From Candidatus Omnitrophota bacterium (GTDB lineage Bacteria; Omnitrophota; Gorgyraeia; Aquiviventales; Aquiviventaceae): a stretch of DNA of 64,000 nt. Below the pieces are notes generated by a model, which ran no database searches, had not been told where the DNA came from, and saw nothing but the letters and a program-made list of their open reading frames with translations. Of the stretch, positions 5,065-56,699 are shown piece by piece. The stretch spans positions 118,332-182,331 of the forward strand of contig JACPSR010000142.1 of NCBI GenBank assembly GCA_016193175.1, read 5' to 3'. Position numbers and translations under genes: made by a program. The first letter of the stretch is position 1. Each line of letters begins with the position of its first letter.

Positions 5065-5736
5065 ATGGATCTGGACGCCTACCGCCACCTTCAGCTCTTG
5101 ACCGAGATTTCTTCCAACGATTCGGTCACGCAGCGCCGCCTCGCCAAACGCTATCGTCTCGCGCTGGGCCTGACCAACTTTCTCATCCGCCGATTAGTCA
5201 ACAAGGGCTATGTCAAGATCATCAACCTCCAGCGCAAGCGCCTGCGCTATCTCATTACGCCCAAAGGGGTGGCCGAAAAAGCGCGATTGACCTACGAGTA
5301 TCTCGACTACTCCCTCGCCCTGTACCGGCACCTCCGGGCTTTTCTGATGCAAACCCTCTCCGCCATCCTTGAGTCCAAACGGACGAAAACCGTGTTGTTC
5401 GGCACAGGGGAGTTGGCGCAGATCGCATTGCTCGCCATGCAGGAGCGCGGCCTGCAGGTCGTGGCGGTGGTGACAGATAAGCCCTCCAATGGCAGCGAGT
5501 CATTTTTGGGCCACCCGGTGCGCCATGTGACGGCGCTTTCGAACCTGGCGTTCGATTGGCTTGTGCTGGCGGTCTTCAGGGACCATCAGCGGATCATCCC
5601 GCTGTTATGCCGTGCTGGCGTGGCGAGAGAAAAGATCTTGACCATCCCCGGTCGCGACACCTCCACTGCGCCTCGTGTCTCTGGCGGTTCCACGCTGGAA
5701 GAGCCCAGCGTATTTTCTGAGGCGCTTGTCCGATGA
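5065..5736 (+). CDS. MarR-type winged-helix regulator of the EPS-associated class, with a C-terminal Rossmann-like domain
   Basis: The N-terminus ..LLTEISSNDSVTQRRLAKRYRLALGLTNFLIRRLVNKGYVKIINLQRKRLRYLITPKGVAEKARLT.. matches the pattern I recall for EPS-associated MarR regulators (..LTPKGIAEKARLT..). The C-terminal ~120 aa (..TVLFGTGELAQIALLAMQERGLQVVAVV..) look like a nucleotide-binding fold. Confidence 0.7.
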   Translation: MDLDAYRHLQLLTEISSNDSVTQRRLAKRYRLALGLTNFLIRRLVNKGYVKIINLQRKRLRYLITPKGVAEKARLTYEYLDYSLALYRHLRAFLMQTLSAILESKRTKTVLFGTGELAQIALLAMQERGLQVVAVVTDKPSNGSESFLGHPVRHVTALSNLAFDWLVLAVFRDHQRIIPLLCRAGVAREKILTIPGRDTSTAPRVSGGSTLEEPSVFSEALVR

Positions 5737-7586
5737 GCGCACAGGAAGCCCCTCGACCGATCCGCCACGGCCTCTGGGCGTTAGCGCGATTTCTCAGGCC
5801 CTACCGCTGGAGAGTCAGCGGACTCATCGTGTTGGGAATCGTGGCCTCATTTTTGGAGACGGTGGGTATCAGCCTCCTGATTCCTGTCCTCGGAGGGTTA
5901 TCTCCGCACAGCGCCATGAAGGCGATGACGGGACATTTCCTCATGGATGCGCTCAGCCATCCCTTTGCTCAGGTCCCGCCGGCGCAGCGGCTCCAGGTGA
6001 TCGTCACCACCATGCTTGGGCTGATTCTCCTGAAGAATCTCGTCAGCTACGTCCTTGCCGTGTGGACCGAGGGGACGGTGATCAGCGTGGAGCGCGACCT
6101 CAGTCTCCGAGTCTTTGACCGGCTCATGACCGGCACAAGCTACCGGCTGATCGCCCGATGCCCGGTGGGTCAGCTGCTGACGCGGCTCCAGAGCGAACCG
6201 GAGCGAGCGGCCCTCGCCCTCCAGGGCCTCATCCAGATGCTCTCGACTCTGTGCTTGACCACGGCCTATGGCGTCCTGCTGCTCCTGATCTCCTGGCCGC
6301 TCACATTGCTGACGGTGGCGTTGCTCCTCGGACTCTCGTGGCTGCTCCGATGGCCGGCCCATCGTGCCAATGCCATCGGCGGGCGCAGGAGCCAGGCGAT
6401 CGCCGAGGTGTCTCAGGCGGGTGTGGAAGCCCTGTCAGGCATGCGCGTCGTGCGGGCCTTTGGACGCGAAGCCTTTGAGCAGAGCCGCTACCGCGATCGA
6501 TTGCGCTGCGTCAACGCCCTCCAGCTGCGAGGCGCTGGACTGGTGCATCTACCTTTCCCGTTGGCCGAGTCGCTCAGCATGACGGTGCTGGCTGTCTTCC
6601 TGGTGATGGCAGCACCCCGCCTCGTGGTGCAGGGCGGTCAGATGCTTCCGTTGCTGCTCACGTTCCTCTTCGTGTTGTATCGTCTGTTGCCGCGCGTGGC
6701 CTACTTCCATGCGACCTGGGTGATGACTGCGCTGTATATGGCCGGGGCCTCGGCTGTGGCGCGCACCCTTGGCCCTCAAGAAGCTTCAGCTCCAGTGAGC
6801 GGCCAACAACCATTCGATCGGCTGCAGAGTGGTATTCGGTTGGAACACGTCACCTTCACCTACCAGGCCGAGGAAGGTGCTGTCGTGAAGGATCTCTGCC
6901 TCGAGATCCCCGCCGGACGCACCACGGCCTTAGTGGGGGTATCAGGCGTGGGCAAGTCCACGCTCGTGGATCTTCTCCTGCGGTTCTATGACCCGGATAC
7001 GGGACGCATTACAGTGGATGGAATCGATCTGCGTGAGCTGAGTCTGACCCAGTGGCGCGCGGCGATTGGGGTGGTAAACCAGGATACGTTCATGTTTCAC
7101 GCCACGATCCGGGAGAACATCGCCTATGGCAACCCCCACGCCACGCAAGAAGAAATTCGTGAGGCAGCCCGCCGGGCGCATGCGCATGACTTCATTGTGG
7201 CCATGGCACGCGGCTACGACACCATTGTGGGAGACCGCGGGGTGCGGCTCTCCGCGGGGCAGCGGCAGCGACTGGCGATCGCGCGGGCCATCCTGCGCAA
7301 TCCACAGGTATTAATCCTGGATGAAGCCACCAGTGCTTTGGACAGCGCTTCTGAGCGCCACCTTCAGGAGGCGCTGGCGGAATTACGCTCACAACGGACG
7401 GTGCTAGTGATTGCGCATCGTCTCTCGACCGTGGCTGATGCGGATCACATTGCCGTGCTCAAGGAGGGACGGGTGGTGGAGCGCGGGACGCACACGGAGT
7501 TGATGGCTCGCGACGGACACTACGCCGCCTTTTGGCGCCTTCAGTCTCCACCGCGGGAGCCGATGGAACATCCGGTGACGGTCTGA
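5733..7586 (+). CDS. ABC exporter, fused permease + ATPase (MsbA/PglK-type half transporter)
   Basis: 617 aa. The N-terminal ~300 aa are a six-helix TMD. Walker A is GVSGVGKST, the signature is LSAGQRQR, Walker B is LILDEATSALD, and the H-loop is VIAHRLS. ATGA overlap with the upstream stop. Confidence 0.9.
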   Translation: MSAQEAPRPIRHGLWALARFLRPYRWRVSGLIVLGIVASFLETVGISLLIPVLGGLSPHSAMKAMTGHFLMDALSHPFAQVPPAQRLQVIVTTMLGLILLKNLVSYVLAVWTEGTVISVERDLSLRVFDRLMTGTSYRLIARCPVGQLLTRLQSEPERAALALQGLIQMLSTLCLTTAYGVLLLLISWPLTLLTVALLLGLSWLLRWPAHRANAIGGRRSQAIAEVSQAGVEALSGMRVVRAFGREAFEQSRYRDRLRCVNALQLRGAGLVHLPFPLAESLSMTVLAVFLVMAAPRLVVQGGQMLPLLLTFLFVLYRLLPRVAYFHATWVMTALYMAGASAVARTLGPQEASAPVSGQQPFDRLQSGIRLEHVTFTYQAEEGAVVKDLCLEIPAGRTTALVGVSGVGKSTLVDLLLRFYDPDTGRITVDGIDLRELSLTQWRAAIGVVNQDTFMFHATIRENIAYGNPHATQEEIREAARRAHAHDFIVAMARGYDTIVGDRGVRLSAGQRQRLAIARAILRNPQVLILDEATSALDSASERHLQEALAELRSQRTVLVIAHRLSTVADADHIAVLKEGRVVERGTHTELMARDGHYAAFWRLQSPPREPMEHPVTV

Positions 7587-16266: not shown

Positions 16267-16445
16267 GCACGGAGCGATTGCGGGTCATGGTGGGTCGGGG
16301 CTCATCCTGCCCCATTGACATGAACGTGTTTCCAGCCGAGCAAAACAGACAAGCCTACTTTGAAGCCCAGATTACCCATGCGGATCGGAAGTTTCGATAC
16401 TGTAAAGTGTCGGTGGACGATGTCTGGAAATATCGGGCGACCTGA
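16263..16445 (+). CDS. Small hypothetical protein (60 aa)
   Basis: ATGA overlap with the GNAT stop suggests translational coupling. No motif was recognised, and the ORF lies at the edge of a decayed region. Confidence 0.25.
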   Translation: MSTERLRVMVGRGSSCPIDMNVFPAEQNRQAYFEAQITHADRKFRYCKVSVDDVWKYRAT

Positions 16446-16493
16446 TCCTCGACTCGTGCAGGGCGCGATTCGAACGGGGAACACCGAGGGACG

Positions 16494-17136
16494 ATGAAAG
16501 GCGCATTCATCATCGAGCGGTCGAGCTACTACCGCGTCCTGGCGCCGATTATTGACGAGGCGTTGCGTAGAGGATGGCACGTGGAGTGCTGGCATGATTA
16601 CAGTCAGCCCAGGTCAGGAACCAAGGGGTACCAATTTCCGGCGGTCGAGTCAGCCCCAACATTCTTGAACGGCCGTCCGGTCTTCAAACCGTATGTTGGG
16701 GTCATGGAGCCTGCGCGACATCGAGGCGTTTATCGATGCATTCGATGAACCCTATGCTGGGGCATCGACGTTTTTGAATGGAGTACGTGTGCGGCTGCGG
16801 AGAGCCACTGCAGAATCGCTCGACGGAGCTTTCCATCCTTTCCAGACTGGTCTTGTCTATCGCAAGAGCCAAGACCGCCTGTTCATTGCTGCCACAGAGG
16901 GCTCATTGGTGGTCGGAGAAGTCTTGAGCGACGAGGGCACCAATATCTTGCAGCAGGTACGTGTGGGGGATCGGTTCTACAGCCCCTCGGAGTATCTCGA
17001 AGGCGCCAAGCGAATCCGGGTCTTTTATCGCGCAACAGGACTCACGACCGAAGGGCGTAGTGCGTTGGGTACCACACGCGCGAAGCATCCGCGACGTGGC
17101 TTGACGAAGGCTGGGGCCGTGGGCTCCCGGACCTGA
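16494..17136 (+). pseudogene. Formyltransferase-like gene remnant: an N-terminal beta-alpha-beta fragment and a C-terminal formyltransferase domain in different frames
   Basis: ORF 16693..17136 reads ..WSLRDIEAFIDAFDEPYAGASTFLNGVRVRLRRA...GLVYRKSQDRLFIAATEGSLVVGEV.., which matches the C-terminal domain pattern of Fmt-like formyltransferases (..iRA...PyPGA.t...g..v.i..a..). ORF 16494..16748 (MKGAFIIERSSYYRVLAPIIDEALRRGWHVECW..) is a Rossmann-type N-terminus in another frame. The catalytic core (HxSLLPxxRG region) is absent. Confidence 0.45.
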
Positions 17137-17140
17137 TCAG

Positions 17141-19731: not shown

Positions 19732-20111
19732 CGCCGCTGGCAGGGGATGTTCCACGACACACGATCCTCGAATGCATTAGAACTCGTGCGTAGTGATGAG
19801 AGGGTGGGCTGGTTTCCCCCTTTCCCCCAAGTGACTGATGTGAGACCAAGTGCCGATTGGGTCCTGAGGTTCACCAACGCAGCGATATTGCGCACGCGCA
19901 GGCCATAGGCTCTGACCCGATGCCGGTAGACCTGAGCGAGGACTTGGTACTTCTTCATCCGGGCAATGACGTGCTCGATTCGGTAGAAGACGAGCAGTAG
20001 GAGCAGCAGCGGTGCCAACCGAGTGGCGAGCGTCGTGAACTGCTCCACGGGAAGACCTGTGAGCCGCCGCAGCTGTTGCGGTTTCCCGCTGAGACGCTGA
20101 AAACGGAGCAT
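19728..20111 (-). mobile_element. Internally deleted IS5/DDE_Tnp_4-type transposase relic
   Basis: The 127-aa ORF joins a transposase N-terminal HTH segment (MLRFQRLSGKPQQLRRLTGLPVEQFTTLATRLAP) directly to the extreme C-terminal DDE-family segment (..YRIEHVIARMKKYQVLAQVYRHRVRAYGLRVRNIAALVNLR..). The ~200-aa catalytic core is missing. The remainder of the ORF (19728 to about 19850) is read-through. It is one of only two minus-strand elements in the window. Confidence 0.6.
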
Positions 20112-20203
20112 GGCCCTCTCTCCCTTCTCGTTCCGGCCACGACTCCCACAGCGTTCATGTGACCAGGCATGTCAACTACGCACCAGTTCTATTGAAGCAG
20201 GAG

Positions 20204-38204: not shown

Positions 38205-39061
38205 TGGTGAAGCCTCAGCACGTCTCGGTGGTGATCCCAGCCCATAACGAAGCGCGGACGATCGGCGCTGTGGTGTCCCGTCTGCGTCAAGCGCATCCAG
38301 AGCTCGCGGAAATCATCGTGGTGGATGACGGCTCCAGCGACCAGACCGCCGCGGCAGCTCAGGTCGCAGGGGCGACCGTCGTCCGTCACCAGGCCACTCA
38401 CGGTTACGGGGCCTCGATCAAGTCCGGGATCCGAACTGCCCAAGGGGTGTTCATCCTCACGCTGGACGGCGATGGGCAACATCAGGTGACCGACCTCACG
38501 AAGTTCTTCGAGCTGTCAGAGCACGTCGACCTCGCGGCCGGACGCCGGGTGCGATGGCTCCACAGCGCCCCCTGGCGGTTGCCAGGGAAGTGGCTGCTGA
38601 GGCGACTGAGCAGCTACCTGGTCCAACAGCGGATTCCAGATCTCAACTGCGGATTACGGTTGTATCGCCGCGAGGCGATCCTCCGGTATCTCCCCCTGTG
38701 CTCGGACGGGTATTCCTTCACTGGGACGAGCCTCGTGCTCTTCCTCCACCGGGGCTACCGCGTCACGTTCGTCCCGGTGGATGTCCAACCCAACTCCTCC
38801 CAGGGACGGGTCACCGTCCGCACCGGATTCGACGTGTTCCTATTGCTGTTGCGGATGGCCACGCTGCTGGACCCCTTGCGGGTGTTCGTACCCCTCAGCG
38901 CGGTCATCGCCCTCTTGGGGATCGCTTGGGGAGCGCCCTATGTCGTGGCGGGCCGCGGGATCAGCGTGGGGGCGCTCCTCCTCCTCCTGACGTCACTGTT
39001 GCTTTTCGCCGTGGGGTTGCTCTCCGACCAGATCGCACAGCTCCGTAAGGAGCGGCTCTAA
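38204..39061 (+). CDS. GT2 polyprenyl-phosphate glycosyltransferase with C-terminal TM helices (GtrB/ArnC-like), copy 2
   Basis: [24 protein letters not shown].., ..IIVVDDGSSDQT.., ..ATHGYGASIK.., ..LDGDGQH.. C-terminus: ..VFLLLLRMATLL.. and ..LLLLLTSLLLFAVGLLSDQIAQLRKE. TGATG overlap with the upstream stop. Confidence 0.85.
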   Translation: MVKPQHVSVVIPAHNEARTIGAVVSRLRQAHPELAEIIVVDDGSSDQTAAAAQVAGATVVRHQATHGYGASIKSGIRTAQGVFILTLDGDGQHQVTDLTKFFELSEHVDLAAGRRVRWLHSAPWRLPGKWLLRRLSSYLVQQRIPDLNCGLRLYRREAILRYLPLCSDGYSFTGTSLVLFLHRGYRVTFVPVDVQPNSSQGRVTVRTGFDVFLLLLRMATLLDPLRVFVPLSAVIALLGIAWGAPYVVAGRGISVGALLLLLTSLLLFAVGLLSDQIAQLRKERL

Positions 39062-46679: not shown

Positions 46680-47309
46680 TCAGTGGTGGGCAGGCGAGGG
46701 GAAGGCAGACGCGGGCAGAGCAGCCTGGGGGGTCATGATGCATTCGTAGACTTCCCAGGGCTCGTGATACATCCGCAGTTGGTCGATGACGCGGAATCCC
46801 CGTCTGCGATAGAAGCGGGTTGCTGGCTCGTTCTTCGCCTTCACTGCCACGCAGTAGCGGGCACATCCCTGCGCACGGAACCACTCGCTCAACGCGGCGA
46901 CCAGGTGGGTGCCGATCCCACGCCCCTGTCTGGAGGGATCGACCGCGATCGCCATGAGCTCCGGTCCCGCATATCGGCTGCGCCTGGGATACGCAAGCGT
47001 CTCGAGGGCAAGTGGAATCAGCCGCGGATGGCTGACACAGCGTAGACATGTCTTCAATCCCAGGGGCAGCCATGCCCGTCGCAGGACTGCCGGCATGACG
47101 CGGCTAGCGTTGAGGCACCCAAGGACAAACCCCTCCGCCTGCCCGCGCTCCTCATAGACGAAGGCTGCGACGTCGGGACGGTGCAGGAGTGCGGCATAGA
47201 GGCTGGTCAGGAACGACACCCCCAGGTCGGGCAGCACGTCACCCGGGCGGGCGGCAACATGGATGGCGGCGACCTGCGCGCAATCTCGAGCTTGGAGAGG
47301 GCGAATCAT
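46680..47309 (-). CDS. GNAT family N-acetyltransferase
   Basis: ..ELMAIAVDPSRQGRGIGTHLVAALSEWFRAQGCARYCVAVKAKNEPATRFYRRRGFRV.. (Q/RxxGxG/A acetyl-CoA motif). Convergent with the upstream gene, with only 2 nt between the two stop codons. Confidence 0.85.
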   Translation of the reverse strand: MIRPLQARDCAQVAAIHVAARPGDVLPDLGVSFLTSLYAALLHRPDVAAFVYEERGQAEGFVLGCLNASRVMPAVLRRAWLPLGLKTCLRCVSHPRLIPLALETLAYPRRSRYAGPELMAIAVDPSRQGRGIGTHLVAALSEWFRAQGCARYCVAVKAKNEPATRFYRRRGFRVIDQLRMYHEPWEVYECIMTPQAALPASAFPSPAHH

Positions 47310-47391
47310 GCGCTCATCCTACCACAAGCGGCAGCGCACCGCTGCAACAGCTGCCTCTGTCTTTCGTCAGGGGTTTTGCGATGATGTGGCG

Positions 47392-48660
47392 ATGACCAAT
47401 CCTCTTCCTCTAAAGATCCTCCGGATCCTCACCCGCATGAATATCGGCGGGCCAGCGGTGCACGCGTCAATCCTCTCCACCCAGTTGGATCCCCATCGCG
47501 TGACCACCCATTTGGTGGTCGGGCGGCCGGACGCGACGGAAGGCGATCTCAGCGGGTGTGTCCACGGTCCGCATGTGCGCGTGACGCAGCTGAACACCCT
47601 CGGCAGAGCGCTCCATCCGTGGAAGGACGTGGTGTCGCTCGCCAGGTTGCTCAAGATGATCTGGCAGGACCCTCCGCACATTCTTCACACGCACATGGCG
47701 AAGGCCGGTGCCCTCGGTCGGCTCGCCGGTATCCTGTACAACCGGGTGGGACCAGGCCGCCGTCGTTCCAAGGTGATCCTGGTCCACACCTTCCACGGCC
47801 ATGTCCTTGACGGGTACTTTGCGCCGTGGCTCTCCCGGTTCTTTCTCATGCTCGAACGATGGTTGGCACGCCACACGGATTGCCTCATTGCGGTCAACCA
47901 GGCGGTTCGCCGTGAGTTGCTCAAGCACGGCATCGGTCGCAGCGAGCAATGGCGCGTGATTCCGATTGGCCTCAATCTGTCTGCGCTGGCGCAGCTCCCA
48001 GTTCCAAACGGCACGTCGCCGGTGCGATTCGGGATCGTTGGCCGCCTTGTTCCGATCAAGAATCCCCAGCTGTTTCTTGAGGGTCTGCGCCGCATGGTCC
48101 GAGACCAGCCGGGAGGTTCTGTGGCGGGGATTATCGTCGGTGATGGCCCCCTCCGCGATGCGTTGGAGCGCGTCTCGGAGCGCTTAGGGCTGTCCGAGAT
48201 CGTTCGGTTTGCCGGATGGCAGCGGGATCTCCGCATGGTGTACGAAGGATTGGATGTGGTGTGTCTCACCTCATGGAACGAAGGCACGCCGGTCTCACTG
48301 ATCGAGGCCATGGCTGCCGGGCGTGCGGTGGTCGCCACCGACGTCGGCGGGGTTCGCGAGCTCTTGGCGGACGGCGAGGATTCGCGCGTCCTGATTCCTC
48401 AACGGGGATTTCACATTGCCCAGCGGGGGATCCTGGTCTTGCCGGGAGATGGAGCAGGTCTGGCGGCGGCCCTGAACCGAGTTGGTCACGATCCCGCCCT
48501 GCGCTGTCGACTCGGACAAGCGGCCCGCGCCTATGTGGTCGGCGTGTATCACGCCGAGCGGCTCCTCCGTGATATCTCGGTCCTCTATGAGGAGTTGGTC
48601 TGGTCAGGACCCGCCAGGGGGGCGGGTCGGATGGGGGCATCGGGGAAGGATCGACCATGA
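47392..48660 (+). CDS. Glycosyltransferase family 1 (GT4-like)
   Basis: ..LKILRILTRMNIGGPAVHASIL.., ..HTHMAKAGALGRLAG.., ..VCLTSWNEGTPVSLIEAMAAGRAVVATDVGGVRELL.. The start was moved to ATG 47392. Confidence 0.85.
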   Translation: MTNPLPLKILRILTRMNIGGPAVHASILSTQLDPHRVTTHLVVGRPDATEGDLSGCVHGPHVRVTQLNTLGRALHPWKDVVSLARLLKMIWQDPPHILHTHMAKAGALGRLAGILYNRVGPGRRRSKVILVHTFHGHVLDGYFAPWLSRFFLMLERWLARHTDCLIAVNQAVRRELLKHGIGRSEQWRVIPIGLNLSALAQLPVPNGTSPVRFGIVGRLVPIKNPQLFLEGLRRMVRDQPGGSVAGIIVGDGPLRDALERVSERLGLSEIVRFAGWQRDLRMVYEGLDVVCLTSWNEGTPVSLIEAMAAGRAVVATDVGGVRELLADGEDSRVLIPQRGFHIAQRGILVLPGDGAGLAAALNRVGHDPALRCRLGQAARAYVVGVYHAERLLRDISVLYEELVWSGPARGAGRMGASGKDRP

Positions 48661-48918
48661 AGCCGCGGCCGGCGCCCTCCAGACGTTCGAACACCTGCTT
48701 CGCGGAGCGATCCGAACCGCCGCTGGGTACCCCTGACGTGGTATCATATGTGACGTTGCGAAGAGGCGTTGGGGCGGACGGGTGAGGCGCGCCTGTGCTA
48801 CACGAAAGCGTCGGAGGCGGGAATCGGTGCAGCGGCTCGCCGCTTAGCGAACCGTCAAGGGGAGACCATTCAGACGATTGACATGGCGGCTCTGTCGGTG
48901 AATGAAAGGGAGAGAAGG

Positions 48919-49899
48919 ATGCGCATGTTGGTTACAGGTGGGGCGGGATTCATCGGGTCGCATTTGACTGAGCGGCTGCTGCAGGTGGACCATGAGGTGA
49001 CCGTGCTCGATAATCTCTCCACCGGCCACTATGAGAATATCGCGCACCTCGACGGCCACCCGCGCCTTCATTTTGTCGTGGGGACGATCCTCAACGAATC
49101 CCTGGTCGATAAGCTGGTGGAACGCTGCGATGTGGTGTTTCATCTAGCGGCAGCGGTCGGGGTTGAGCTTATCATCAAGAAGCCCCTCGAATCCCTGATG
49201 ACCAACATTCGAGGCAGCGAGGTCGTCCTGGAGATGGTGCATCGGTACCGCAAGAAGGTGCTGATCGCCTCGACGTCGGAGATCTACGGCAAGAACACGA
49301 ACGGTCCACTTCGGGAAGACACCGATCGCATCCTCGGCTCTCCGCTGAAAAGCCGGTGGAGCTACTCCACGTCAAAGGCGGTCGATGAGATCCTGGCGCA
49401 CGTCTACTGGAAAGAGAAAGGGGTGCCGACGGTCATCGTGCGTCTCTTTAACACGGTGGGTCCCCGACAAAGCGGCGCCTATGGGATGGTGATCCCCCGC
49501 TTTGTCAGCCAGGCGCTGAAAGGAGAGCCGCTCGTGGTGCATGGGAGCGGGAAGCAATCCCGCTGCTTCCTGCATGTGAAAGACGTGGTGAACGCCCTGG
49601 TGAAGCTGATTGAGCATCCCCGGGCGGTGGGGGACGTTTTCAACCTGGGCAGCCAGGAAGAGGTGACCATTGAAGCGCTGGCCAACCTCGTCATCCGTCT
49701 GACCAAAAGCCCCTCGCGAGCTGTCTACGTGCCCTATGAAGAAGCCTATGAAGAGGGGTTTGAGGACATGCCACGGCGGGTGCCGGATACCAGCAAGGTT
49801 CGCGGCCTGATCGGTTTCCAGCCCACGATGAATCTCGAGGAGATTATCCAGAGCGTGGTGGACAGCATGCGCCAACCCTTTCCAGCACCCGCCAAATAG
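48919..49899 (+). CDS. NAD-dependent NDP-sugar epimerase/dehydratase (extended SDR; UXS/ArnA-C/GalE-like)
   Basis: MRMLVTGGAGFIGSHL.., ..ASTSEIYG.., ..YSTSKAVDE.. (YxxxK). GGGAGAGAAGG lies directly upstream of ATG 48919; the track's 50-aa N-terminal extension is unlikely. Confidence 0.9.
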   Translation: MRMLVTGGAGFIGSHLTERLLQVDHEVTVLDNLSTGHYENIAHLDGHPRLHFVVGTILNESLVDKLVERCDVVFHLAAAVGVELIIKKPLESLMTNIRGSEVVLEMVHRYRKKVLIASTSEIYGKNTNGPLREDTDRILGSPLKSRWSYSTSKAVDEILAHVYWKEKGVPTVIVRLFNTVGPRQSGAYGMVIPRFVSQALKGEPLVVHGSGKQSRCFLHVKDVVNALVKLIEHPRAVGDVFNLGSQEEVTIEALANLVIRLTKSPSRAVYVPYEEAYEEGFEDMPRRVPDTSKVRGLIGFQPTMNLEEIIQSVVDSMRQPFPAPAK

Positions 49900-49910
49900 C
49901 CAGCCTGTCG

Positions 49911-51728
49911 ATGGGCCTCGAAACAGCAAGAGAGCTCGGCCGAGTCGGATTGGCTGGCATGACGGCGTTCGTGATCACCCTGCTGCTTACCCCCCTGGTG
50001 CGGTTGACCGCCGTCCGGTTTGGGTGGATCGTCAAGCCGGCGGAATCACGTTGGGGCAGGCGCGTCGTCGCCCGGCTGGGCGGGGTCGCCATGTTTATCG
50101 GGTTTGTCGCGACGACCGCCTTGTGGGTGCCCTGGGAACGATCGGTCTTGGCGCTGCTCGGGGGGGTGAGCCTCGTCTATGTCGTCGGGCTCGTGGATGA
50201 CTTCCGTCGAATTCCTCCGTATGCCAAGCTGCTGGCCCAACTGCTCATCGGCTGCGTGATCGTCCTCAGCGGCATCCGGTTGGCGTCCGTCCCCTGGGCG
50301 TGGGTGTCGATTCCGCTGTCCGTCTTGTGGTTTGTCTTTGTGATGAATGCCTTCAACCTCCTGGACAACATGGACGGCCTGGCGGCCGGCGTGGGGGCGA
50401 TTGCCGCGGGGTTCTGCGTGCTCCATGCCGCCCTGAGCGGCCAGTGGGTCGTCGCGACGCTGGCGGGCATCGTGAGCGGCGTGTGTCTGGGCTTCCTGCG
50501 CTACAACTTTCCTCCGGCCAAGATCTTCATGGGCGACTCCGGCAGTCACCTGCTGGGTTTGAGCCTGGCGACGGTGGTCCTGATGGAGAGCCGACCGCAC
50601 TCGACGCAGCTCGTCAGCATCTTGGCGGTGCCCGCCCTCGTGCTGGCCGTGCCGATCTTTGACACCTGTTTCGTGACCGTGCAGCGTCTGCTCCATCGGC
50701 TGCATCCCTTCGCCGGCGGTATCGACCATGTCTCCCACCGGTTGGCGATTCTGGGGCTCAGCCCTCGTCAAACCGTGATCGTCCTCTACGGGGCCAGCGC
50801 GGCTCTGGGAGGCTTGAGCGTGTTCTCGACGCGTCTCAGCCCTCTTCCGGCGATCGCCATGTGGCTGCTCGTCCTTGTCGGACTGATCCTGTGCGGCCGC
50901 TACCTGGCGCGGGTGAACGTGTACCGCTTGCAACCCGCCGAAACGCCGGCCGCCAGGATGGGGAGCCCTCCGGTGACGCTGATTGAGACGATGCTGCTGC
51001 ACAAGCGCCGGCTGGTCGAGGTCTTGGTCGATTTCGGCATCGTGAGCAGCGTCTATGTGTTCGCGCATCTCTTGCGGTTTGAGGGAGCGCTGACGAGCCA
51101 CCTCCAATCGCTGCTGGTCCGCTCCCTCCCGATCATCCTGGTGGGCAAGTTGATCTGTTTCGCGGGCTGCGGGCTCTATCGCAGGGTCTGGCGGTATCCA
51201 GATCTCTCCGACCTCTTAGCGGTCTTCAAAGCGGTGTCGCTCGGCTCCATCCTGTCGTCCATCGCGCTCCTCTACCTCTGGCGCTTTGAAGGATATTCCC
51301 GCGCCGTGTTGATCATCGATTGGATGCTCTGCTTACTCGCCATCGGGGGCTCACGGGTGGTTGAGCGCGTGCTGGATGAGTGGATCAGCGCCGCGAGCAA
51401 CCAGGAAAGCGTTCCGGTCCTCATTCTCGGAGCCGGTGAAACTGGGGAGCGGGTGTTGCGATTCCTCAGGCTTCAAGGCAGAGGCACGCGCCGAGCGGTT
51501 GGCTTTCTTGACGATGATTGGCGCAAGCAGGGCAACCAGCTCCACCGTGTCCGCGTGCTGGGGACGCGGGAGCGGCTCGCAGCGGTGCTCGCGGAATACG
51601 GCGTGCGTGAAGTCCTGATTGCGATCAGCGATCCGCCGGGCGATCTCCTTCAACACGTGCGCCAGTGTTGCGAGCCTCGGGGCATCGCCTGGAAAATGGT
51701 GACGGCGGACGTGACTGACGCCGTATAA
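49911..51728 (+). CDS. Polyprenyl-phosphate HexNAc-1-phosphate transferase (WecA/MraY family) fused to a WbpM/PglF/CapD N-terminal-like membrane + Rossmann module
   Basis: N-terminal ~330 aa: ..VGLVDDFRRIP.., ..VMNAFNLLDNMDGLAAG.., ..NFPPAKIFMGDSGSHLLG.. C-terminal ~270 aa: four TM helices (..WRYPDLSDLLAVFKAV..), then ..VPVLILGAGETGERVLRFL...AVGFLDDDWRKQGNQLHRVRVLG..VLIAISD.. Confidence 0.85.
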   Translation: MGLETARELGRVGLAGMTAFVITLLLTPLVRLTAVRFGWIVKPAESRWGRRVVARLGGVAMFIGFVATTALWVPWERSVLALLGGVSLVYVVGLVDDFRRIPPYAKLLAQLLIGCVIVLSGIRLASVPWAWVSIPLSVLWFVFVMNAFNLLDNMDGLAAGVGAIAAGFCVLHAALSGQWVVATLAGIVSGVCLGFLRYNFPPAKIFMGDSGSHLLGLSLATVVLMESRPHSTQLVSILAVPALVLAVPIFDTCFVTVQRLLHRLHPFAGGIDHVSHRLAILGLSPRQTVIVLYGASAALGGLSVFSTRLSPLPAIAMWLLVLVGLILCGRYLARVNVYRLQPAETPAARMGSPPVTLIETMLLHKRRLVEVLVDFGIVSSVYVFAHLLRFEGALTSHLQSLLVRSLPIILVGKLICFAGCGLYRRVWRYPDLSDLLAVFKAVSLGSILSSIALLYLWRFEGYSRAVLIIDWMLCLLAIGGSRVVERVLDEWISAASNQESVPVLILGAGETGERVLRFLRLQGRGTRRAVGFLDDDWRKQGNQLHRVRVLGTRERLAAVLAEYGVREVLIAISDPPGDLLQHVRQCCEPRGIAWKMVTADVTDAV

Positions 51729-51880
51729 CCCACACCACAGAAACACAGTCCGCCAACAGAATTGGCGGATCCGCCACGCTGTGTGGCAGAAATTCCACAG
51801 AGGCACAGAGGCGTGTCGACAAACGTGCTCTGTGTCTCTGTGGGATTCGTTCTGTGGCCTCTGTGGTGTGGTTCTGTGAG
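51729..51880. repeat. Nested palindromic intergenic element built from CACAG/CTGTG units, including a small GC hairpin just after the upstream stop
   Basis: Hairpin: ccgccaa(51750-56)/ttggcgg(51762-68). Inner arms: ccacagaggcacagaggcgt (51795-51814) versus acgtgctctgtgtctctgtgg (51822-51843), flanking gtcgac (51815-20). Outer arms: cacaccacagaaacacag (51731-48) versus ctgtggcctctgtggtgtg (51852-70). There are 4 CACAG and 6 CTGTG pentamers in about 150 bp. Confidence 0.85.
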
Positions 51881-51891
51881 GGCTTGCGTGG

Positions 51892-53142
51892 ATGACTGTG
51901 CGGTTAGGAAAGGTTGGGAACAGGGTCCAAGAAGGCAGCCTCTATGCGCTGCTTTTTTTATTGCCGTTTTCGAAAGCCGCGGTTGAGATCTTGTTCGGGT
52001 TCATCTTCTTCGGGTGGATCTTCCAGCGGCTCGACCCCCGAACGCGTACCGATACGCTCTGGCTGCGCCCCGCACTCCACCCACTGGCATGGGCGCTCAT
52101 CTCGTACCTGAGCGTCTGTGCGCTCTCCATCGTGTCCAGCACCTCCCCGTGGTTGAGCATCAAAGGATTTGTTGGCAAGTGGCTCGAGTATCTCTTGTTC
52201 TTCGTGATGGTCGCCGATGTCGCTCGTCAACCCATGGTCGTCAGGCGAAGCCTGAGGATCCTCGTGTATTCTGCGACGTTCGTGTTGATTGAGGCGTTCA
52301 CTCAGGAGCGATATGGAAATGGGTTCTTTTCCTCCCACCGGTTGGATTTCTTCAGCCGAATGACCGGCCCCTATGAAAATCCCATTGATCTGGCGACGTA
52401 CCTGATCGTGGTCATTCCAACCCTGCTCGCTTTTGCAACGGTCCGCCGCAGGGCCAGCCGCTGGCCGCTGTGGGGCGTGCTCCTGCTCCTAAGCGCATGC
52501 CTCGTCAGGACCAAAGCGGTCGGGGCGTGGTTGGGGGTGGGGGTGGGGATGCTCGTGATGATTCTCCTGAAGACCGCAGTGCGGAAACCTGCGCTCATCC
52601 TCCTCATGACGCTCGCGCTGACCGGGGGGGGCGTGCTGTCTCTGGGGGGCCGCTTCAAGGCGGTGGTGTCCAAGTCTGATATCGGGATGTTGGACCGGTG
52701 GCACATGTGGCAGGCGGCGCTCAAGATGATCGGCGAGCGGCCGGTGTTGGGGTTCGGGCTGAACACCTTTATGGCAAACTACCTCGACCATTGGGTTGGA
52801 GGTCAACAGCTCCCGCGCTACGCCCACAACTGTTACCTGCAGGTTGCCGCGGAAACGGGCCTCCCGGGTCTCCTGACGTTCCTGGCGCTGCTGTATCTAT
52901 TCTTCGCGCGCGTGGTGGCCGAACTGCGCCGCCTGCGCCCCAACGATCAGTCGGTCCTTGCCGGTCTGACGGCGGGGCTCCTCGCGTTTGCCGTTCAGTC
53001 AGCGGTCGACACCAACTTCTATGCCTTACGCCAAGCGGCGCTCTTCTGGGTGCTCGCAGGACTGGCGCTTGGGTTGAGCAGCAGGAGCGTCAGCCCGGCA
53101 CCCCAAGCTTCTCCTGTTAGCCGACAGAAGCTCGTGGCATAG
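51892..53142 (+). CDS. O-antigen ligase family protein (WaaL/Wzy_C domain)
   Basis: About 11 TM helices. Periplasmic loop motif ..PRYAHNCYLQVAAETGLPGLLTFLALL.. (conserved His of the Wzy_C/WaaL domain). Confidence 0.85.
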   Translation: MTVRLGKVGNRVQEGSLYALLFLLPFSKAAVEILFGFIFFGWIFQRLDPRTRTDTLWLRPALHPLAWALISYLSVCALSIVSSTSPWLSIKGFVGKWLEYLLFFVMVADVARQPMVVRRSLRILVYSATFVLIEAFTQERYGNGFFSSHRLDFFSRMTGPYENPIDLATYLIVVIPTLLAFATVRRRASRWPLWGVLLLLSACLVRTKAVGAWLGVGVGMLVMILLKTAVRKPALILLMTLALTGGGVLSLGGRFKAVVSKSDIGMLDRWHMWQAALKMIGERPVLGFGLNTFMANYLDHWVGGQQLPRYAHNCYLQVAAETGLPGLLTFLALLYLFFARVVAELRRLRPNDQSVLAGLTAGLLAFAVQSAVDTNFYALRQAALFWVLAGLALGLSSRSVSPAPQASPVSRQKLVA

Positions 53143-53151
53143 GGGGGTGTT

Positions 53152-54150
53152 GTGGTTTCGATCCAGCGGGCGCGTCACATCCTCTTTCTCCGCACCGATC
53201 GGCTTGGCGAGACGTTGTTGAACCTCCCAGCGATCGCTGCGCTGAAGCAATTCCTCCCCAACGCCTCGCTCGCCTTGCTGGTTCATCCGGATCTACAGGT
53301 GCTTATGTCGAGTTTCCCGATCATCGATCATGTGATTCCGTATCCTCAGGATGCTCACCGTGCGTGGTGGATCCGCGCGTACCAGGTCGGGTGCCTGCTC
53401 AGATCGCACAGGTTCGACATCGCGGTCGTGTCCAACCCGATGAAGGAGCTGCACCTGGCGGCGCGGCTGGCTGGCATCCCTGTCCGGGTCGGGTACAACC
53501 GGAAATGGGGTTGGCTCCTCACGCACCGCCTCGAGGACCGCAAAGCGCTTGGCGAACGCCATGAAGCCGAGTATAATCTTGACTTAGTGCGAAGGCTTGG
53601 GTTCCAGACCTCGACCCCTCAGTGGCCCGTCCCTCATCTTGAGCGCGAGCAACTCGAAGTCCTCCAACTGCTTGAGCAGCAGGGGATTCAGCAGTCAGAG
53701 CCGTTTATCGCGGTTCACCCGTGGACCTCGAACCCTCTCAAAGAGTGGCCGGCCACTCGGTTCGCAGCGTTGATCCAGCAGGTGGGAGAGCGTGTCCCCC
53801 TCAGCGTCGTGGTGATCGGGGGTCCGGAGCACCGTCACCAAGCGGATGCGATTATCCCACCAGCGCTGCCAGTGGTGAATCTTGTCGGCCGTTTGACGCT
53901 CAATCAGCTCGCGGCCCTGCTGGCGCGCGCGAGGCTGCTCGTTTCAAATGACAGCGGCCCGGTTCACTTGGCCGTTGCGGTCAAGACCAAGACCCTCGTG
54001 CTCTTTGGCGCGTCGAGTCCGGCCACGGGCCCTCGCCGCTGGGGGCCGTGGGGGGAAGGCCATGCGGTCATCTGGAAAGCCTCGATGGAGGCGATTACCG
54101 TCGAGGAAGTATTCGAAGCGCTTCGGCAGATGCTCGAGACCAAACAATGA
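53152..54150 (+). CDS. Glycosyltransferase family 9 (ADP-heptose:LPS heptosyltransferase-like), copy 1
   Basis: ..ILFLRTDRLGETLLNLPAIAALKQ.. and ..LLVSNDSGPVHLAVAVKTKTLVLFG.. GTG start. Confidence 0.85.
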   Translation: MVSIQRARHILFLRTDRLGETLLNLPAIAALKQFLPNASLALLVHPDLQVLMSSFPIIDHVIPYPQDAHRAWWIRAYQVGCLLRSHRFDIAVVSNPMKELHLAARLAGIPVRVGYNRKWGWLLTHRLEDRKALGERHEAEYNLDLVRRLGFQTSTPQWPVPHLEREQLEVLQLLEQQGIQQSEPFIAVHPWTSNPLKEWPATRFAALIQQVGERVPLSVVVIGGPEHRHQADAIIPPALPVVNLVGRLTLNQLAALLARARLLVSNDSGPVHLAVAVKTKTLVLFGASSPATGPRRWGPWGEGHAVIWKASMEAITVEEVFEALRQMLETKQ

Positions 54151-55274
54151 CCTCGAATGTGCCTCGTCGCATCCTGCTCGTCAATCCGTTTGGCATCGGC
54201 GATGTGCTCTTTACTACGCCGCTCATCCGCGCCGTGCGTCAGGCCTTCCCGCACAGCCGTCTGGGGTATCTCTGTAACCGGCGCACTGAGCGGATTCTCC
54301 AAACGAACCGGCACCTGGATGAGCTCTTCGTGTACGAGAAAGACGAGGTCGTGGAGCTGTGGCGCTCCTCATGGTGGCGAGGGGCGGCTCATGTGGCGAG
54401 GTTGGTGCGCCGCATTCACGGGGCGCGTATCGATCTCGCCATTGATCTCTCGCTGGGGGATCGGTATAGCCTGATCCTGAAGCTGCTCCGGATCCCCCGC
54501 CGCGTCGGCTTTCACTATCGCACCCGCGGACGCTTTTTGACCGACCGTCTCACGATTGACGGCTACCACGATCTCCACGTGGTGGAGTATTATCGCCGGT
54601 TGCTGCGCTTTCTGGGGATCGAGCTGCTCGACCACTCCCTGGAGCTGCAGGCGTCCCAGGAGGATGAGCGATGGGCCGACCAGTGGTTGGAGGAGCACAA
54701 CCTCAACGGCCGCCATCCCCTCGTCGGGATGGTGCCGGCCGGAGGCGTCAGCTGGGGCATCAGCGCGCCGTTCCGCCGATGGAGCTTCGAGGGGTTCGCG
54801 GCGGTTGGGGATGCCCTCGTGAAGCGCTTTGGAGCGCGGCTCATCCTCTTCGGGGAGCCGTCGGATCAGTCGGCGTGCGGGACGGTCGCCCGGCTGATGC
54901 ACTGCCCGGCCGTGGATGCGAGCGGACAGACGACGCTCGGGCAATTCGTCAGCCTCTTGGGCCGCTTGGAGCTCGTCATCTGCAACGACGGCGGACCCCT
55001 CCATCTTGCGGTCAGCCAGGGAGTCAAGACGGTCTCGATCTTTGGACCGGTTGATCCCAACGTCTATGGCCCATACCCTCAAGTCCACTATCATCAGGTT
55101 GTCTGCAAGGAGGAGCTCCCCTGTCGTCCCTGCTACCACCAGTTCAAGCTCCCCCCCTGTCCGTATGAGCGCGCCTGCCTGACCACCATCATGCCAGAGG
55201 AAGTGATCGAAGCGTGTGGAGCCCTCTTGAGCGGCAGGGCGTTACAGCCGAGGGCAGAACCGAGCCATGCGTGA
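54147..55274 (+). CDS. Glycosyltransferase family 9 (heptosyltransferase-like), copy 2
   Basis: ..RILLVNPFGIGDVLFTTPLIRAVRQAFP.. and ..LVICNDGGPLHLAVSQGVKTVSIFG.. ATGA overlap; the track start 54048 lies inside the previous gene. Confidence 0.85.
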   Translation: MTSNVPRRILLVNPFGIGDVLFTTPLIRAVRQAFPHSRLGYLCNRRTERILQTNRHLDELFVYEKDEVVELWRSSWWRGAAHVARLVRRIHGARIDLAIDLSLGDRYSLILKLLRIPRRVGFHYRTRGRFLTDRLTIDGYHDLHVVEYYRRLLRFLGIELLDHSLELQASQEDERWADQWLEEHNLNGRHPLVGMVPAGGVSWGISAPFRRWSFEGFAAVGDALVKRFGARLILFGEPSDQSACGTVARLMHCPAVDASGQTTLGQFVSLLGRLELVICNDGGPLHLAVSQGVKTVSIFGPVDPNVYGPYPQVHYHQVVCKEELPCRPCYHQFKLPPCPYERACLTTIMPEEVIEACGALLSGRALQPRAEPSHA

Positions 55275-55461
55275 ACCCCGTACCACGGCTTCACAGCCGG
55301 GGCTTCCAGAAATACGTTTCGCGCTCCAGGCACATTCCTCCCCACGTTCACACGCGGGGCTTCCTGTGGTACGGGGTGAAGCTGGGCCGGTGGTCCTCTC
55401 ACTCGTCGAGCGGGGCTGGCAGGCTGCCAGGGAATGCTCGCTCGAACTGCAGCCGCAGGGC

Positions 55462-55794
55462 ATGGAGTTCCTCCACATCATCAAGGGTCGGCTCGACCGC
55501 GCGGTCCGCAGCCTCATTGAGCCATGGCCCCACATCCGGATCATCAGCCTCCCGCGCACGCTGTTTTGGCCCGTGGTGAGCGCGCTTGTGCTCGGCTTGT
55601 GGCTGACGGGGAAGCTCCGCGCCCTCCTGGTGGATAATCCCCGCTCGTACCGGCGGCTGTCGCGGGTGAGCGGTTTGGTGCGAGTGCCCTTGACGCTGGT
55701 GCAATGGGGGGATGCGGGGTACGAACTGTCCGTGGACTCGGCGCCGATCACACGGGCGGCCTGGTGGACGCAGGTTCAGCGACGGGGCCAGTGA
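55462..55794 (+). CDS. Hypothetical small membrane protein
   Basis: 111 aa from ATG 55462 with one TM segment (..LFWPVVSALVLGLWLTG..). No motif was recognised. The upstream part of the track ORF (55267-55461) covers a structured non-coding-looking region. Confidence 0.3.
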   Translation: MEFLHIIKGRLDRAVRSLIEPWPHIRIISLPRTLFWPVVSALVLGLWLTGKLRALLVDNPRSYRRLSRVSGLVRVPLTLVQWGDAGYELSVDSAPITRAAWWTQVQRRGQ

Positions 55795-55820
55795 CCCACG
55801 GGACGGCCGGAGCGGGACGG

Positions 55821-56699
55821 ATGCGGATCGCCCTGATCTTCGATAAGCCCCGAGCGGATACGACCGGGGTGTATTTCGAACGGGCCTGCCGAACGCTGGG
55901 GCTTGCGTATGACCACTGCTCGCTGCGCGACGCGGCTCGACTGACGGCCGCTTATGACGTGTACCTGCGGATCGATCATGGAGGTGACTACCTTGTCGGG
56001 CTGCCCGCGGGCCTTCGGCCGCGGGTGTTCTTCGCGATTGATACGCACCTTCCGCATAGCTGGAAGAAGATTCGGCGGATCGCCTCACGGTACGACGTGG
56101 TCTTCTGCGCGCAGGCGGAGGCGGCCAGCCGGCTGCGAAACGGCGCATGGCTGCCGCTGGCGTGCGACCCAGCCATCCACGGGGCGCCTGACGAGGCTGC
56201 CGCTTCGCCGGTCTGGGATGTCGCGTTCGTCGGGACCGACGGCGGCATCCCGAGGAAATTCTATCTCCAGGCGCTCCGGGAGCGCTACCCGAACAGCTTC
56301 ATCGGTCCCGCTGACCATGCCCAGTTGGCCTCGATCTACCGGCGGGCGCGGGTGGGGTTTAACTACTCGATCCACGACGATGTCAATATGCGCATCTTCG
56401 AGGTGCTGGCCGCGGAGACGCTCCTCGTGACGAACCAGCTTCGCCATGATGATCTGGGTCGTCTGGGTCTGGAGGATCGCCGCCACCTCGTCCTCTACCG
56501 GAGCCCGCGGGAGCTCTTCGACCTCATCGAGTACTACCTGGCGCATCCAGCCGAACGGCAGGCGATCGCGCAGGAGGGGGCCCACGTCGTGCGGGCGCGG
56601 CACACGTACGTCCGCCGCCTCGAGCAGCTCCTGGCGACGGTGTCACGCCAGCCGACCCTCACCGTGGGCCAGCCGGGAGGGGAATCCGGTGTGAGATGA
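55821..56699 (+). CDS. CgeB-like glycosyltransferase (DUF3880 / Glyco_trans_1_2-type), copy 1
   Basis: ..VAFVGTDGGIPRKFYLQAL.., ..NMRIFEVLAAETLLVTNQL.., ..LVLYRSPRELFDLIEYYLAHPAERQAIAQEGAHVVRARHTY.. Confidence 0.65.
   Translation: MRIALIFDKPRADTTGVYFERACRTLGLAYDHCSLRDAARLTAAYDVYLRIDHGGDYLVGLPAGLRPRVFFAIDTHLPHSWKKIRRIASRYDVVFCAQAEAASRLRNGAWLPLACDPAIHGAPDEAAASPVWDVAFVGTDGGIPRKFYLQALRERYPNSFIGPADHAQLASIYRRARVGFNYSIHDDVNMRIFEVLAAETLLVTNQLRHDDLGRLGLEDRRHLVLYRSPRELFDLIEYYLAHPAERQAIAQEGAHVVRARHTYVRRLEQLLATVSRQPTLTVGQPGGESGVR

Follow-up and report, generated by a model that had tools for sequence, protein, structure and literature searches.

A probable REP/BIME-like palindromic repeat in a lipopolysaccharide operon of Omnitrophota and its cross-phylum family of CACAG-unit hairpins

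Between the genes for the initiating transferase and the O-antigen ligase in a lipopolysaccharide (LPS) operon of Candidatus Omnitrophota (assembly GCA_016193175.1, contig JACPSR010000142.1) lies a gap of 163 nt (from the TAA stop at 51726-51728 to the ATG at 51892; positions are those of the analysed 64,000-nt stretch of DNA, hereafter the window). This gap is filled by a nested palindrome of CACAG/CTGTG units, the short segment from the GAGGG to the ATG being its sole non-repeat portion. We consider it probable that the palindrome is a dispersed repeat of the REP/BIME-like kind (repetitive extragenic palindrome/bacterial interspersed mosaic element) that was inserted at this junction, while the mechanism of its mobilisation is much less certain. 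Repetition, dispersal, modularity and presence/absence polymorphism were all observed in the analysis, as were the duplication-free insertion of a module, covariation of the hairpin, strand symmetry and placement next to stop codons. The core family to which the palindrome belongs is apparently undescribed.

An inverted-repeat search placed the palindrome at 51730-51878, where ten CACAG/CTGTG units are arranged as nested hairpins (CACAG starts at 51736, 51744, 51796 and 51804; CTGTG starts at 51779, 51830, 51838, 51852, 51861 and 51874, and once more at 51896, just within the ligase open reading frame (ORF)). The best 170-nt stretch of the window held 11 CACAG/CTGTG motifs versus the 0.33 expected from the window-wide rate, 170-nt stretches elsewhere in the 64 kb held four or fewer, and all three occurrences of CACAGNNNCACAG in the 64 kb (0.2 expected) fell within the element. 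Folding of both strands, which a first-pass annotation of the window had proposed, gave energies near -90 kcal/mol for each (-89.9 kcal/mol, z = -7.5, on the plus strand and -85.0, z = -7.9, on the minus strand), and none of 200 shuffles folded as stably. As the element is identical in an independent assembly of a metagenome-assembled genome (MAG; L001, GCA_016192565.1), it is not an assembly artefact. The nested palindrome described by the first-pass annotation was thus confirmed, with all three of its inverted repeats and with the lack of a U-tract on the plus strand; the inventory of the gap listed real hairpins but missed one GC mini-hairpin (B, 51770-51790) and a TTCTGTG unit (51872-51878). 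The 74-aa ORF (51762-51986), which the same annotation had called spurious, has no Pfam match and spans a repeat that is found elsewhere in both orientations, so that the call is justified.

The best homologues of the ligase belong to Candidatus Omnitrophota, and in these relatives the junction is empty. The closest one (L168, from MAG JAUYPJ01; ligase 88% identical) has a conserved gene order with a gap of 23 nt and no repeat, and in L169 and L170 (ligase 62% identical) the transferase and ligase genes overlap by ATGA and the element is likewise absent. Homologous elements are nonetheless present on other contigs of MAG JAUYPJ01 (L029, L044), and in L169 a plain CACAG hairpin occupies another junction of the same operon, the one separating its two GT9 heptosyltransferase genes; at the window locus the two heptosyltransferase genes lie 8 nt apart (gene calls of L001) with no CACAG cluster between them. 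Given the empty junctions in L168-L170 and the copies elsewhere (L029, L044, L169), the element is an insertion that comes and goes, and not a conserved feature of this junction. This is the lack of conservation at syntenic loci that the first-pass annotation had held to argue against a function.

The element is also modular. One of its arms carries, between units 2 and 3, a twin module of two adjoining GC mini-hairpins (A, the first half, and B), whose junction GGCGGATCCGCC is palindromic in its own right; the minus strand of the window aligns over its full length with the plus strand of L044, both mini-hairpins included. A composite-specific pattern (the twin module plus the adjoining CTGTG) matched 11 metagenome contigs of Omnitrophota type, representing at least eight other flank contexts, with elements of 140-230 nt. 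Mini-hairpin A recurs in 11 metagenome contigs with variable loops, B has homologues in L044 and L124-L134, and the outer left arm is present in L044, L124-L134 and L169. The composites share one plan: each arm has four CACAG units, the outer stem reads ACACCACAGA.../...TCTGTGGTGT, and small GC hairpins, where present, come in one or two sets that invariably lie between units 2 and 3 (the plain scaffold, free of mini-hairpins, is found in L169 and L029). The polarity of the twin module relative to the CACAG arm is constant, its stems being conserved and its loops variable, and at least four types of GC mini-hairpin module, each in at least two loci, accompany the scaffold, on one arm or on both. 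Such a layout is the organisation of a mosaic element. A single insertion event could be followed directly: L128 and L130 are orthologous loci (flanks about 92% identical) that both keep the element, and L130 has an extra 30-nt GC hairpin (CCTGCCTGCGCCGCGGACGCGGCAGGCAGG) inserted within CA^CAG, without target duplication. L129, which lies at another locus, has the same twin-module loops as L130.

Beyond Omnitrophota, the core hairpin recurs across bacterial phyla. We scanned the core pattern CCACAGNNNCACAG-N15-45-CTGTGNNNCTGTGG over a 596-Gb genome collection, in which by our own estimate about one match is expected by chance (22 specified bases, 31 spacings, self-complementary), or still about two if the calculation is restricted to pre-existing long hairpins, and recovered at least 120 genome loci in at least 14 phyla (Acidobacteriota, Planctomycetota, Verrucomicrobiota, Chloroflexota, Pseudomonadota (Alpha-, Beta- and Gammaproteobacteria), Myxococcota, Bacteroidota, Calditrichota, Chlamydiota, Gemmatimonadota, Cyanobacteria, Firmicutes, Omnitrophota and others). 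Cultured carriers are found in Pelomonas, Roseateles, Sulfuricella, Sorangium and Flavobacterium. The hairpins have the form (CACAGAGR)2-4, with two to four eight-nt units per arm and a total length of 55-105 nt, within the boundary consensus TT(C/A)R-CCACAG(AGR-CACAG)n...CTGTGG-Y(G/T)AA. Several features that the search pattern did not specify are common to them: the unit CACAGAG occurs a third time, the free positions read AG, the loop measures 4-25 nt, and the flanks and the location are shared as well. Sub-types follow lineages: some Acidobacteriota have an inner CACAGCTTG unit, the loops of Thermoanaerobaculia are very short, and Bacteroidota have the CACAGATT unit variant, which is what within-lineage amplification would produce. 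Searches by BLAST against a plasmid collection gave no match to the window element, and none to the generic hairpin, a query that the low-complexity filter may have masked.

Conservation of the pairing could be traced outwards from the core. The palindrome extends about 4 nt beyond it, since position -1/+1 is complementary in 97% of cases (always R...Y), positions -2 and -3 in about 67% and position -4 in 50%, with background values further out. In an alignment of 70 sequences 93% of the cells were paired (flank pair: 55 AU, 13 GC, 1 unpaired), and the covariation score of the stems was reached by none of 500 shuffles. A covariance model (R1) was built from 70 family members, none of them from Omnitrophota, and it recognised the window hairpin at 51790-51848 with 43.1 bits (E ~1e-8) on the plus strand and 39.5 bits on the minus strand, as the sole significant match in 64 kb; we stress that the search pattern by which the family was collected came from the window hairpin itself. 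Over 100 genome loci (734 kb) the model found about 33 copies besides the seeds, that is, about one per 22 kb near a seed, which is a biased local estimate around seeds and not a genome-wide count; several of the loci had at least four copies within 8 kb.

A few observations stand apart from this survey. R1 gave a weak match at 38741-38785 of the window (14.5 bits, E = 0.17), on a 16-nt inverted repeat in an ORF-covered stretch, which is probably due to chance. In a Pirellulales MAG (L049, about 6577-6730) the hairpin lies between direct tandem 9-nt arrays (GGCCACAGG on the left and CTCCTGTGGCCCTGTT-like on the right), which suggests that the units are able to expand in a microsatellite-like manner. 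A typical hairpin was also present at 5452-5524 of a contig binned as a 'Klebsiella pneumoniae' MAG (L079); in view of the distribution of the rest of the family, the contig has probably been mis-binned, so that the copy would not be enterobacterial. An origin of the palindrome by fold-back duplication of arbitrary flanks was ruled out, as the complementarity ends about 4 nt outside the core.

The dispersal bears directly on the classification of the repeat. The first-pass annotation had listed a REP/MITE-like repeat (MITE, miniature inverted-repeat transposable element) among its options and had reasoned that many dispersed copies would make the element generic and not locus-specific; such copies were found, in at least eight other flank contexts for the composite and at least 120 loci for the core hairpin, and the option thereby gained support in its REP/BIME-like form. 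A classical MITE would be a deletion derivative of an insertion sequence (IS) with a DDE transposase, moved via its terminal inverted repeats, and we regard this as very unlikely, even though the element shares with MITEs its small size, non-coding nature, dispersal, inverted termini and presence/absence polymorphism. The repeat is palindromic throughout, not at its ends alone; the core is flanked by inverted complements and not by direct repeats, with complementarity at background level after 4 nt; the sole clean insertion event (L130 versus L128) left no target-site duplication; and neither an IS with matching ends nor a transposase near any copy was seen in the roughly 1.3 Mb of loci examined. 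The Correia elements of Neisseria offer a similar comparison, being small, non-autonomous intergenic repeats that can be co-transcribed and can alter mRNA processing, but the terminal inverted repeats, target-site duplications and parent IS of Correia-type MITEs were not seen here. Since it is palindromic throughout and lacks a target-site duplication, the element fits a REP/BIME-like repeat better than a MITE.

Family copies are intergenic, and among the 78 contexts that could be classified (by crude ORF calling) 46 were co-directional, 24 convergent and 8 divergent. At the 99 gene ends that face a hairpin, the stop codon lay within 0-30 nt of it in about 80 cases (median about 11 nt), several abutting it exactly. 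Such clustering past stop codons, together with the avoidance of divergent spacers, the covarying stems, the very stable fold of the window copy (-90 kcal/mol, z = -7.5), its place between co-directional genes of one operon, 2 nt past a stop, and the RNA-level effects of Escherichia coli REPs, would also suit a cis-acting structured RNA (an attenuator, an RNase III site or a 3'-end stabiliser) selected for the expression of transferase and ligase, its repetition then reflecting the reuse of modules. We judge this reading unlikely, for several properties of the family run counter to it. Both strands fold equally well (the family median of the fold energy, sense minus antisense, is 0), the mismatches on the sense strand comprise 54 G.U versus 56 A.C, and the polar composites occur in either orientation relative to transcription (with respect to the incoming gene, three have the module first and two have it last, and two stand in convergent contexts). 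Taken together, the equal G.U and A.C counts, the equal sense and antisense folds and the mixed orientation of the composites argue for a primary constraint on DNA, or on a hairpin that is symmetric between the strands, and against one on a strand-specific RNA. Moreover, relatives lack the element at this junction and have the two genes tightly spaced or overlapping instead; a locus-specific attenuator or riboregulator, as the first-pass annotation had suggested, is therefore unsupported in view of the dispersed copies, the 23-nt gap of L168 and the ATGA overlap of L169/L170.

Terminators and known RNA families gave no better fit. The hairpins resemble intrinsic terminators in forming a stable stem-loop soon after a stop codon; unlike them, the window copy sits inside an operon and lacks a plus-strand U-tract, and a run of at least four T within 16 nt after the hairpin was present at 21 of the 99 gene ends and missing from the other 78. 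The Rfam scan proposed by the first-pass annotation returned no family at threshold: the window gap produced sub-threshold miRNA noise only, permissive scans of two hairpins gave sub-threshold miRNA-like matches only, and 18 family loci yielded at the gathering threshold one tRNA and one Flavo-1, neither of them on the hairpin. In Flavobacterium sp. PLA-1-15 (L031), a Bacteroidota-type CACAGATT hairpin (3347-3390) precedes a Flavo-1 RNA (3458-3556; Rfam RF01705, 61 bits) by 68 nt; this proximity, seen in a single case, may be a coincidence.

No gene family was associated with the hairpins. The 148 neighbouring ORFs matched 174 Pfam families with at most three members each, so that this bulk Pfam scan gave no enrichment of any gene family, and the ORFs bracketed by two hairpins were housekeeping genes (purD, a response regulator and similar). 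Copies beside unrelated genes (purD, and rimP-nusA in L134, the latter by N-terminal sequence only) and the 174 neighbour families leave little room for a multi-site operator, in which 8-bp CACAG units would be bound cooperatively as double-stranded DNA by an oligomeric regulator of LPS or O-antigen genes. MetJ metbox arrays are tandem operator boxes, and the regular 8-bp periodicity of the element does resemble them; the core of the unit is also conserved more strictly than pairing demands. No promoter-like site was found in or near the gap, however, the element sits between co-directional genes right after a stop, and it is missing from the orthologous junction in relatives. The operator that the first-pass annotation had entertained is thus left without support, given the dispersed copies and the empty syntenic junctions, and we would give it hardly any credence. 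In L134, three CACAG elements lie within 1 kb (1572-1948 and 2421-2580) around an ORF that is followed by a NusA-like N-terminus, from which the neighbours are taken to be rimP-nusA; a canonical A-tract/hairpin/T-tract terminator (cccaaaaaaagtgggtgacgcccactttttttg, at about 1802-1833) lies between two of these elements.

Set against known repeats, the element shares much with the REP/BIME/REPIN-RAYT systems (RAYT, REP-associated tyrosine transposase): it is extragenic, forms hairpins, exists in many copies at gene 3' ends and between convergent genes, is often found no more than about 15-20 nt from a stop codon, is a mosaic of several palindromic units, differs in presence between related genomes and inserts without target duplication. 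Four features of REP/BIME (extragenic dispersal, a stem-loop palindrome, mosaic assembly and stop-codon proximity) were all observed, and the GC mini-hairpins of the element (21-30 nt) are REP-sized. The scaffold differs, consisting of tandem 8-nt units (two to four per arm, 55-105 nt), whereas a REP is a single palindrome of 20-40 nt. RAYTs are single-copy genes. While REP systems have a RAYT, none could be tied to the element in the sequence examined.

Several points weigh against the REP/BIME-like interpretation. No cognate transposase was found among the genes bracketed by two hairpins, neither Y1_Tnp nor TnpB was among the families listed for the 148 neighbouring ORFs, and a scan of the window genes at 476-28422 and 47263-56699 turned up no transposase. 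A REP carries a GTAG (or GTGG/CGTC) tag at a single end, and no such single-ended tag was seen: the element ends in CTGTGG on both strands, so that GTGG is present, base-paired in the stem at both feet. Only one copy exists in the 64-kb window, which is the part of the source genome that was covered, searches for CACAG arrays, GC mini-hairpins and R1 matches having found no further one. The core sequence is conserved over at least 14 phyla, whereas canonical REPs are lineage-specific (species or genus), and this hints at a constraint beyond selfish spread. At position 8 of the unit, A or G is nearly independent between the arms (odds ratio 2.3, p = 0.06), which explains the recurrent A.C and G.U mismatches and indicates that the unit sequence is constrained by something besides pairing.

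In the literature, CACAG/CTGTG palindromes were absent from three surveys of REP, RAYT and HUH systems (PMC3733652, PMC12306157, PMC6006769), full-text searches for 15-17-nt strings from the element gave no match (in a limited library, which is no proof of novelty), and nothing relevant was found on Omnitrophota, octanucleotide or Flavobacterium repeats. The STRR sequences (short tandemly repeated repetitive heptamers) form direct tandem arrays and are confined to heterocystous cyanobacteria. Like them, the element has 7-8-nt units in tandem in intergenic DNA; unlike them, its arrays are short, inverted into a hairpin with a defined boundary and spread across phyla. DnaA boxes, LexA boxes, sigma-54 sites, integron attC sites, Type III restriction sites and SECIS (selenocysteine insertion sequence) elements were also considered and rejected, because their motifs do not match or because the distribution of the hairpin over hundreds of gene 3' ends is incompatible with them.

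We reason that the REP/BIME-like repeat would be a non-autonomous palindrome acting at the DNA level, made of a scaffold hairpin with four 8-9-nt CACAG units per arm and of a twin pair of 21-nt GC mini-hairpins placed between units 2 and 3 of one arm. The composite would have multiplied in Omnitrophota genomes and, at the window locus, would have entered 2 nt past the transferase stop, thereby separating two genes that relatives keep 23 nt apart or overlapping by ATGA. Copies may spread as single-stranded DNA (ssDNA) hairpins by means of a structure-specific enzyme encoded in trans. The HUH/Y1 transposases of RAYTs and of IS200 are the known mechanism of REP mobilisation and insert without duplication (PMC3733652, PMC6006769); for this reason the leading candidate would be a RAYT-like HUH/Y1 enzyme, although none was found in the limited sequence examined.

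At the RNA level the element would be co-transcribed with the operon, as the lack of a U-tract and of a promoter-like site in the gap suggests that it is transcribed through, and the transcript would fold to about -90 kcal/mol. A ribosome that completes the transferase would have to unwind the outer stem, which begins 2 nt after the stop, and translation of the ligase would be uncoupled from that of the transferase, relying on its own GAGGG 9 nt before the ATG. In E. coli, REP325 is both a partial Rho-dependent terminator (attenuating read-through) and a stabiliser of the upstream mRNA (bioRxiv 10.64898/2026.03.23.713779), and REPs less than 16 nt from a stop codon are described, in a passage of PMC12306157 that cites an earlier study, as lowering translation of the upstream gene. 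By analogy, the element may act as a 3'-end stabiliser, a partial attenuator or a brake on ribosomes that terminate within 15 nt of it. Any such effects on the RNA of the operon would be incidental.

The features of the junction are collected in Table 1. Around it, no terminator-like site was found on the plus strand between 51400 and 52200 except one within the upstream ORF, and no U-tract follows the element. The N-terminus of the ligase can be aligned with those of its orthologues in L168 and L169, and an exact look-up of the upstream transferase protein returned no recorded match. The transferase is a single GT4 + CoA_binding_3 fusion in the window (605 aa) and in L169 (606 aa); in L168 (2133-3977) two separate genes, of 391 and 217 aa, take its place.

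Table 1. Features of the transferase-ligase junction (window coordinates)
Feature	Position	Strand	Remarks
Upstream ORF	49911-51728	+	GT4 WecA/WbpL-type initiating transferase fused to a CoA_binding_3 domain (Pfam)
TAA stop of the upstream gene	51726-51728	+	Element begins 2 nt further on
Outer inverted repeat	51730-51741 / 51860-51871	.	12 nt, 100% complementary
Outer left arm, units 1-2, CCACACCACAGAAACACAG	51730-51748	.	Pairs with 51850-51871; inverted repeats and fold
GC mini-hairpin A, TCCGCCAA-CAGAA-TTGGCGGA	51749-51769	.	Arms 51749-51756 / 51762-51769, 8 nt, 100% complementary
GC mini-hairpin B, TCCGCCAC-GCTGT-GTGGCAGA	51770-51790	.	Adjoins A; second half of the twin module; fold
Inner hairpin, units 3-4 per arm, AATTCCACAGAGGCACAGAGGCGT, loop GTCGACAA, ACGTGCTCTGTGTCTCTGTGGGATT	51791-51848	.	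Fits the cross-phylum (CACAGAGR)n model
Inner inverted repeat	51791-51810 / 51828-51847	.	20 nt, 90% complementary, GTCGAC at the centre
Outer right arm, TTCTGTGGCCTCTGTGGTGTGG	51850-51871	.	Pairs with 51730-51748; inverted repeats and fold
Extra degenerate unit, TTCTGTG	51872-51878	.	Immediately outside the outer stem
Shine-Dalgarno-like GAGGG (51878-51882), 9-nt spacer, ligase ATG (51892)	51878-51894	+	Sequence inspection
Downstream ORF	51892-53142	+	Wzy_C O-antigen ligase (Pfam)

Other stretches and junctions of these loci were recorded alongside. Within the polysaccharide/nonulosonic-acid cluster of the window (NeuB, a CMP-sugar transferase, aminotransferases and glycosyltransferases), the stretches 16267-17140 and 19732-20158 have no ORF of at least 200 aa, and they contain neither a CACAG element nor an R1 match. 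In L168 a PhdYeFM antitoxin/PIN toxin pair is inserted between the heptosyltransferase genes (6312-7006), a further sign that junctions of the LPS operon accept insertions. Two Logan contigs that encode an identical ligase (L002, positions 1-40, and L003, positions 1-45) both start inside the right arm of the element; contig breaks at such a place are what a repeat or hairpin would be expected to cause by disrupting short-read (k-mer) assembly, and the repeat may fragment Omnitrophota MAGs.

A different hairpin family, built of CCACAGTT units (e.g., CCACAGTTCCACAGTTCTTCCACAGTT...AACTGTGGAACTGTGG), was met on viral contigs (L135, L137, L139, L141, L142, L144, L145, L147, L149, L152, L155, L156, L164 and L166; e.g., at 2141-2193 of L139), where it adjoins a conserved stretch, catacaactactgtggtggaagg. 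Most of these contigs measure 4.3-7.8 kb, several being microvirus-sized, and others 13.7-34 kb. This viral hairpin may function in small ssDNA phages as an origin or in packaging.

At the level of the locus the result is an ordinary one, namely the insertion of a repeat and not a regulator of LPS synthesis, and a tempting but wrong annotation is thereby removed; the insertion would happen to break the translational coupling of transferase and ligase. As repeats of this kind break short-read assemblies, they are also relevant to the quality of MAGs. The interest lies in the family, that is, in apparently undescribed CACAGAGR hairpins that recur close to stop codons across phyla. REP-type repeats are thought to be lineage-specific, tied to RAYTs and restricted to few phyla, and a hairpin that lies almost on the stop codon, with an 8-nt unit shared by Acidobacteriota, Bacteroidota, Chloroflexota and Omnitrophota, does not fit this picture. 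We tentatively entertain, as a possibility that we hold to be more doubtful than not, that the (CACAGAGR)n hairpin is an unrecognised conserved palindrome of at least 14 phyla, placed after stop codons at a density of about one per tens of kb and read through its CACAG units by an unknown trans-acting protein, the core of the unit being conserved beyond the needs of base-pairing. If so, the reader protein would be, for example, a new clade of ssDNA transposases or nucleases or a conserved nucleic-acid-binding factor, the element itself would be a pan-bacterial mobile element or a general 3'-end signal, and in Omnitrophota the CACAG units would double as CA^CAG landing sites for a second tier of mobile GC mini-hairpins. 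The R1 model and its search pattern provide a handle with which to ask which conserved protein recognises the hairpin, and they bear as well on whether stop-proximal hairpins may serve as a general device for the tuning of operons in poorly studied phyla.

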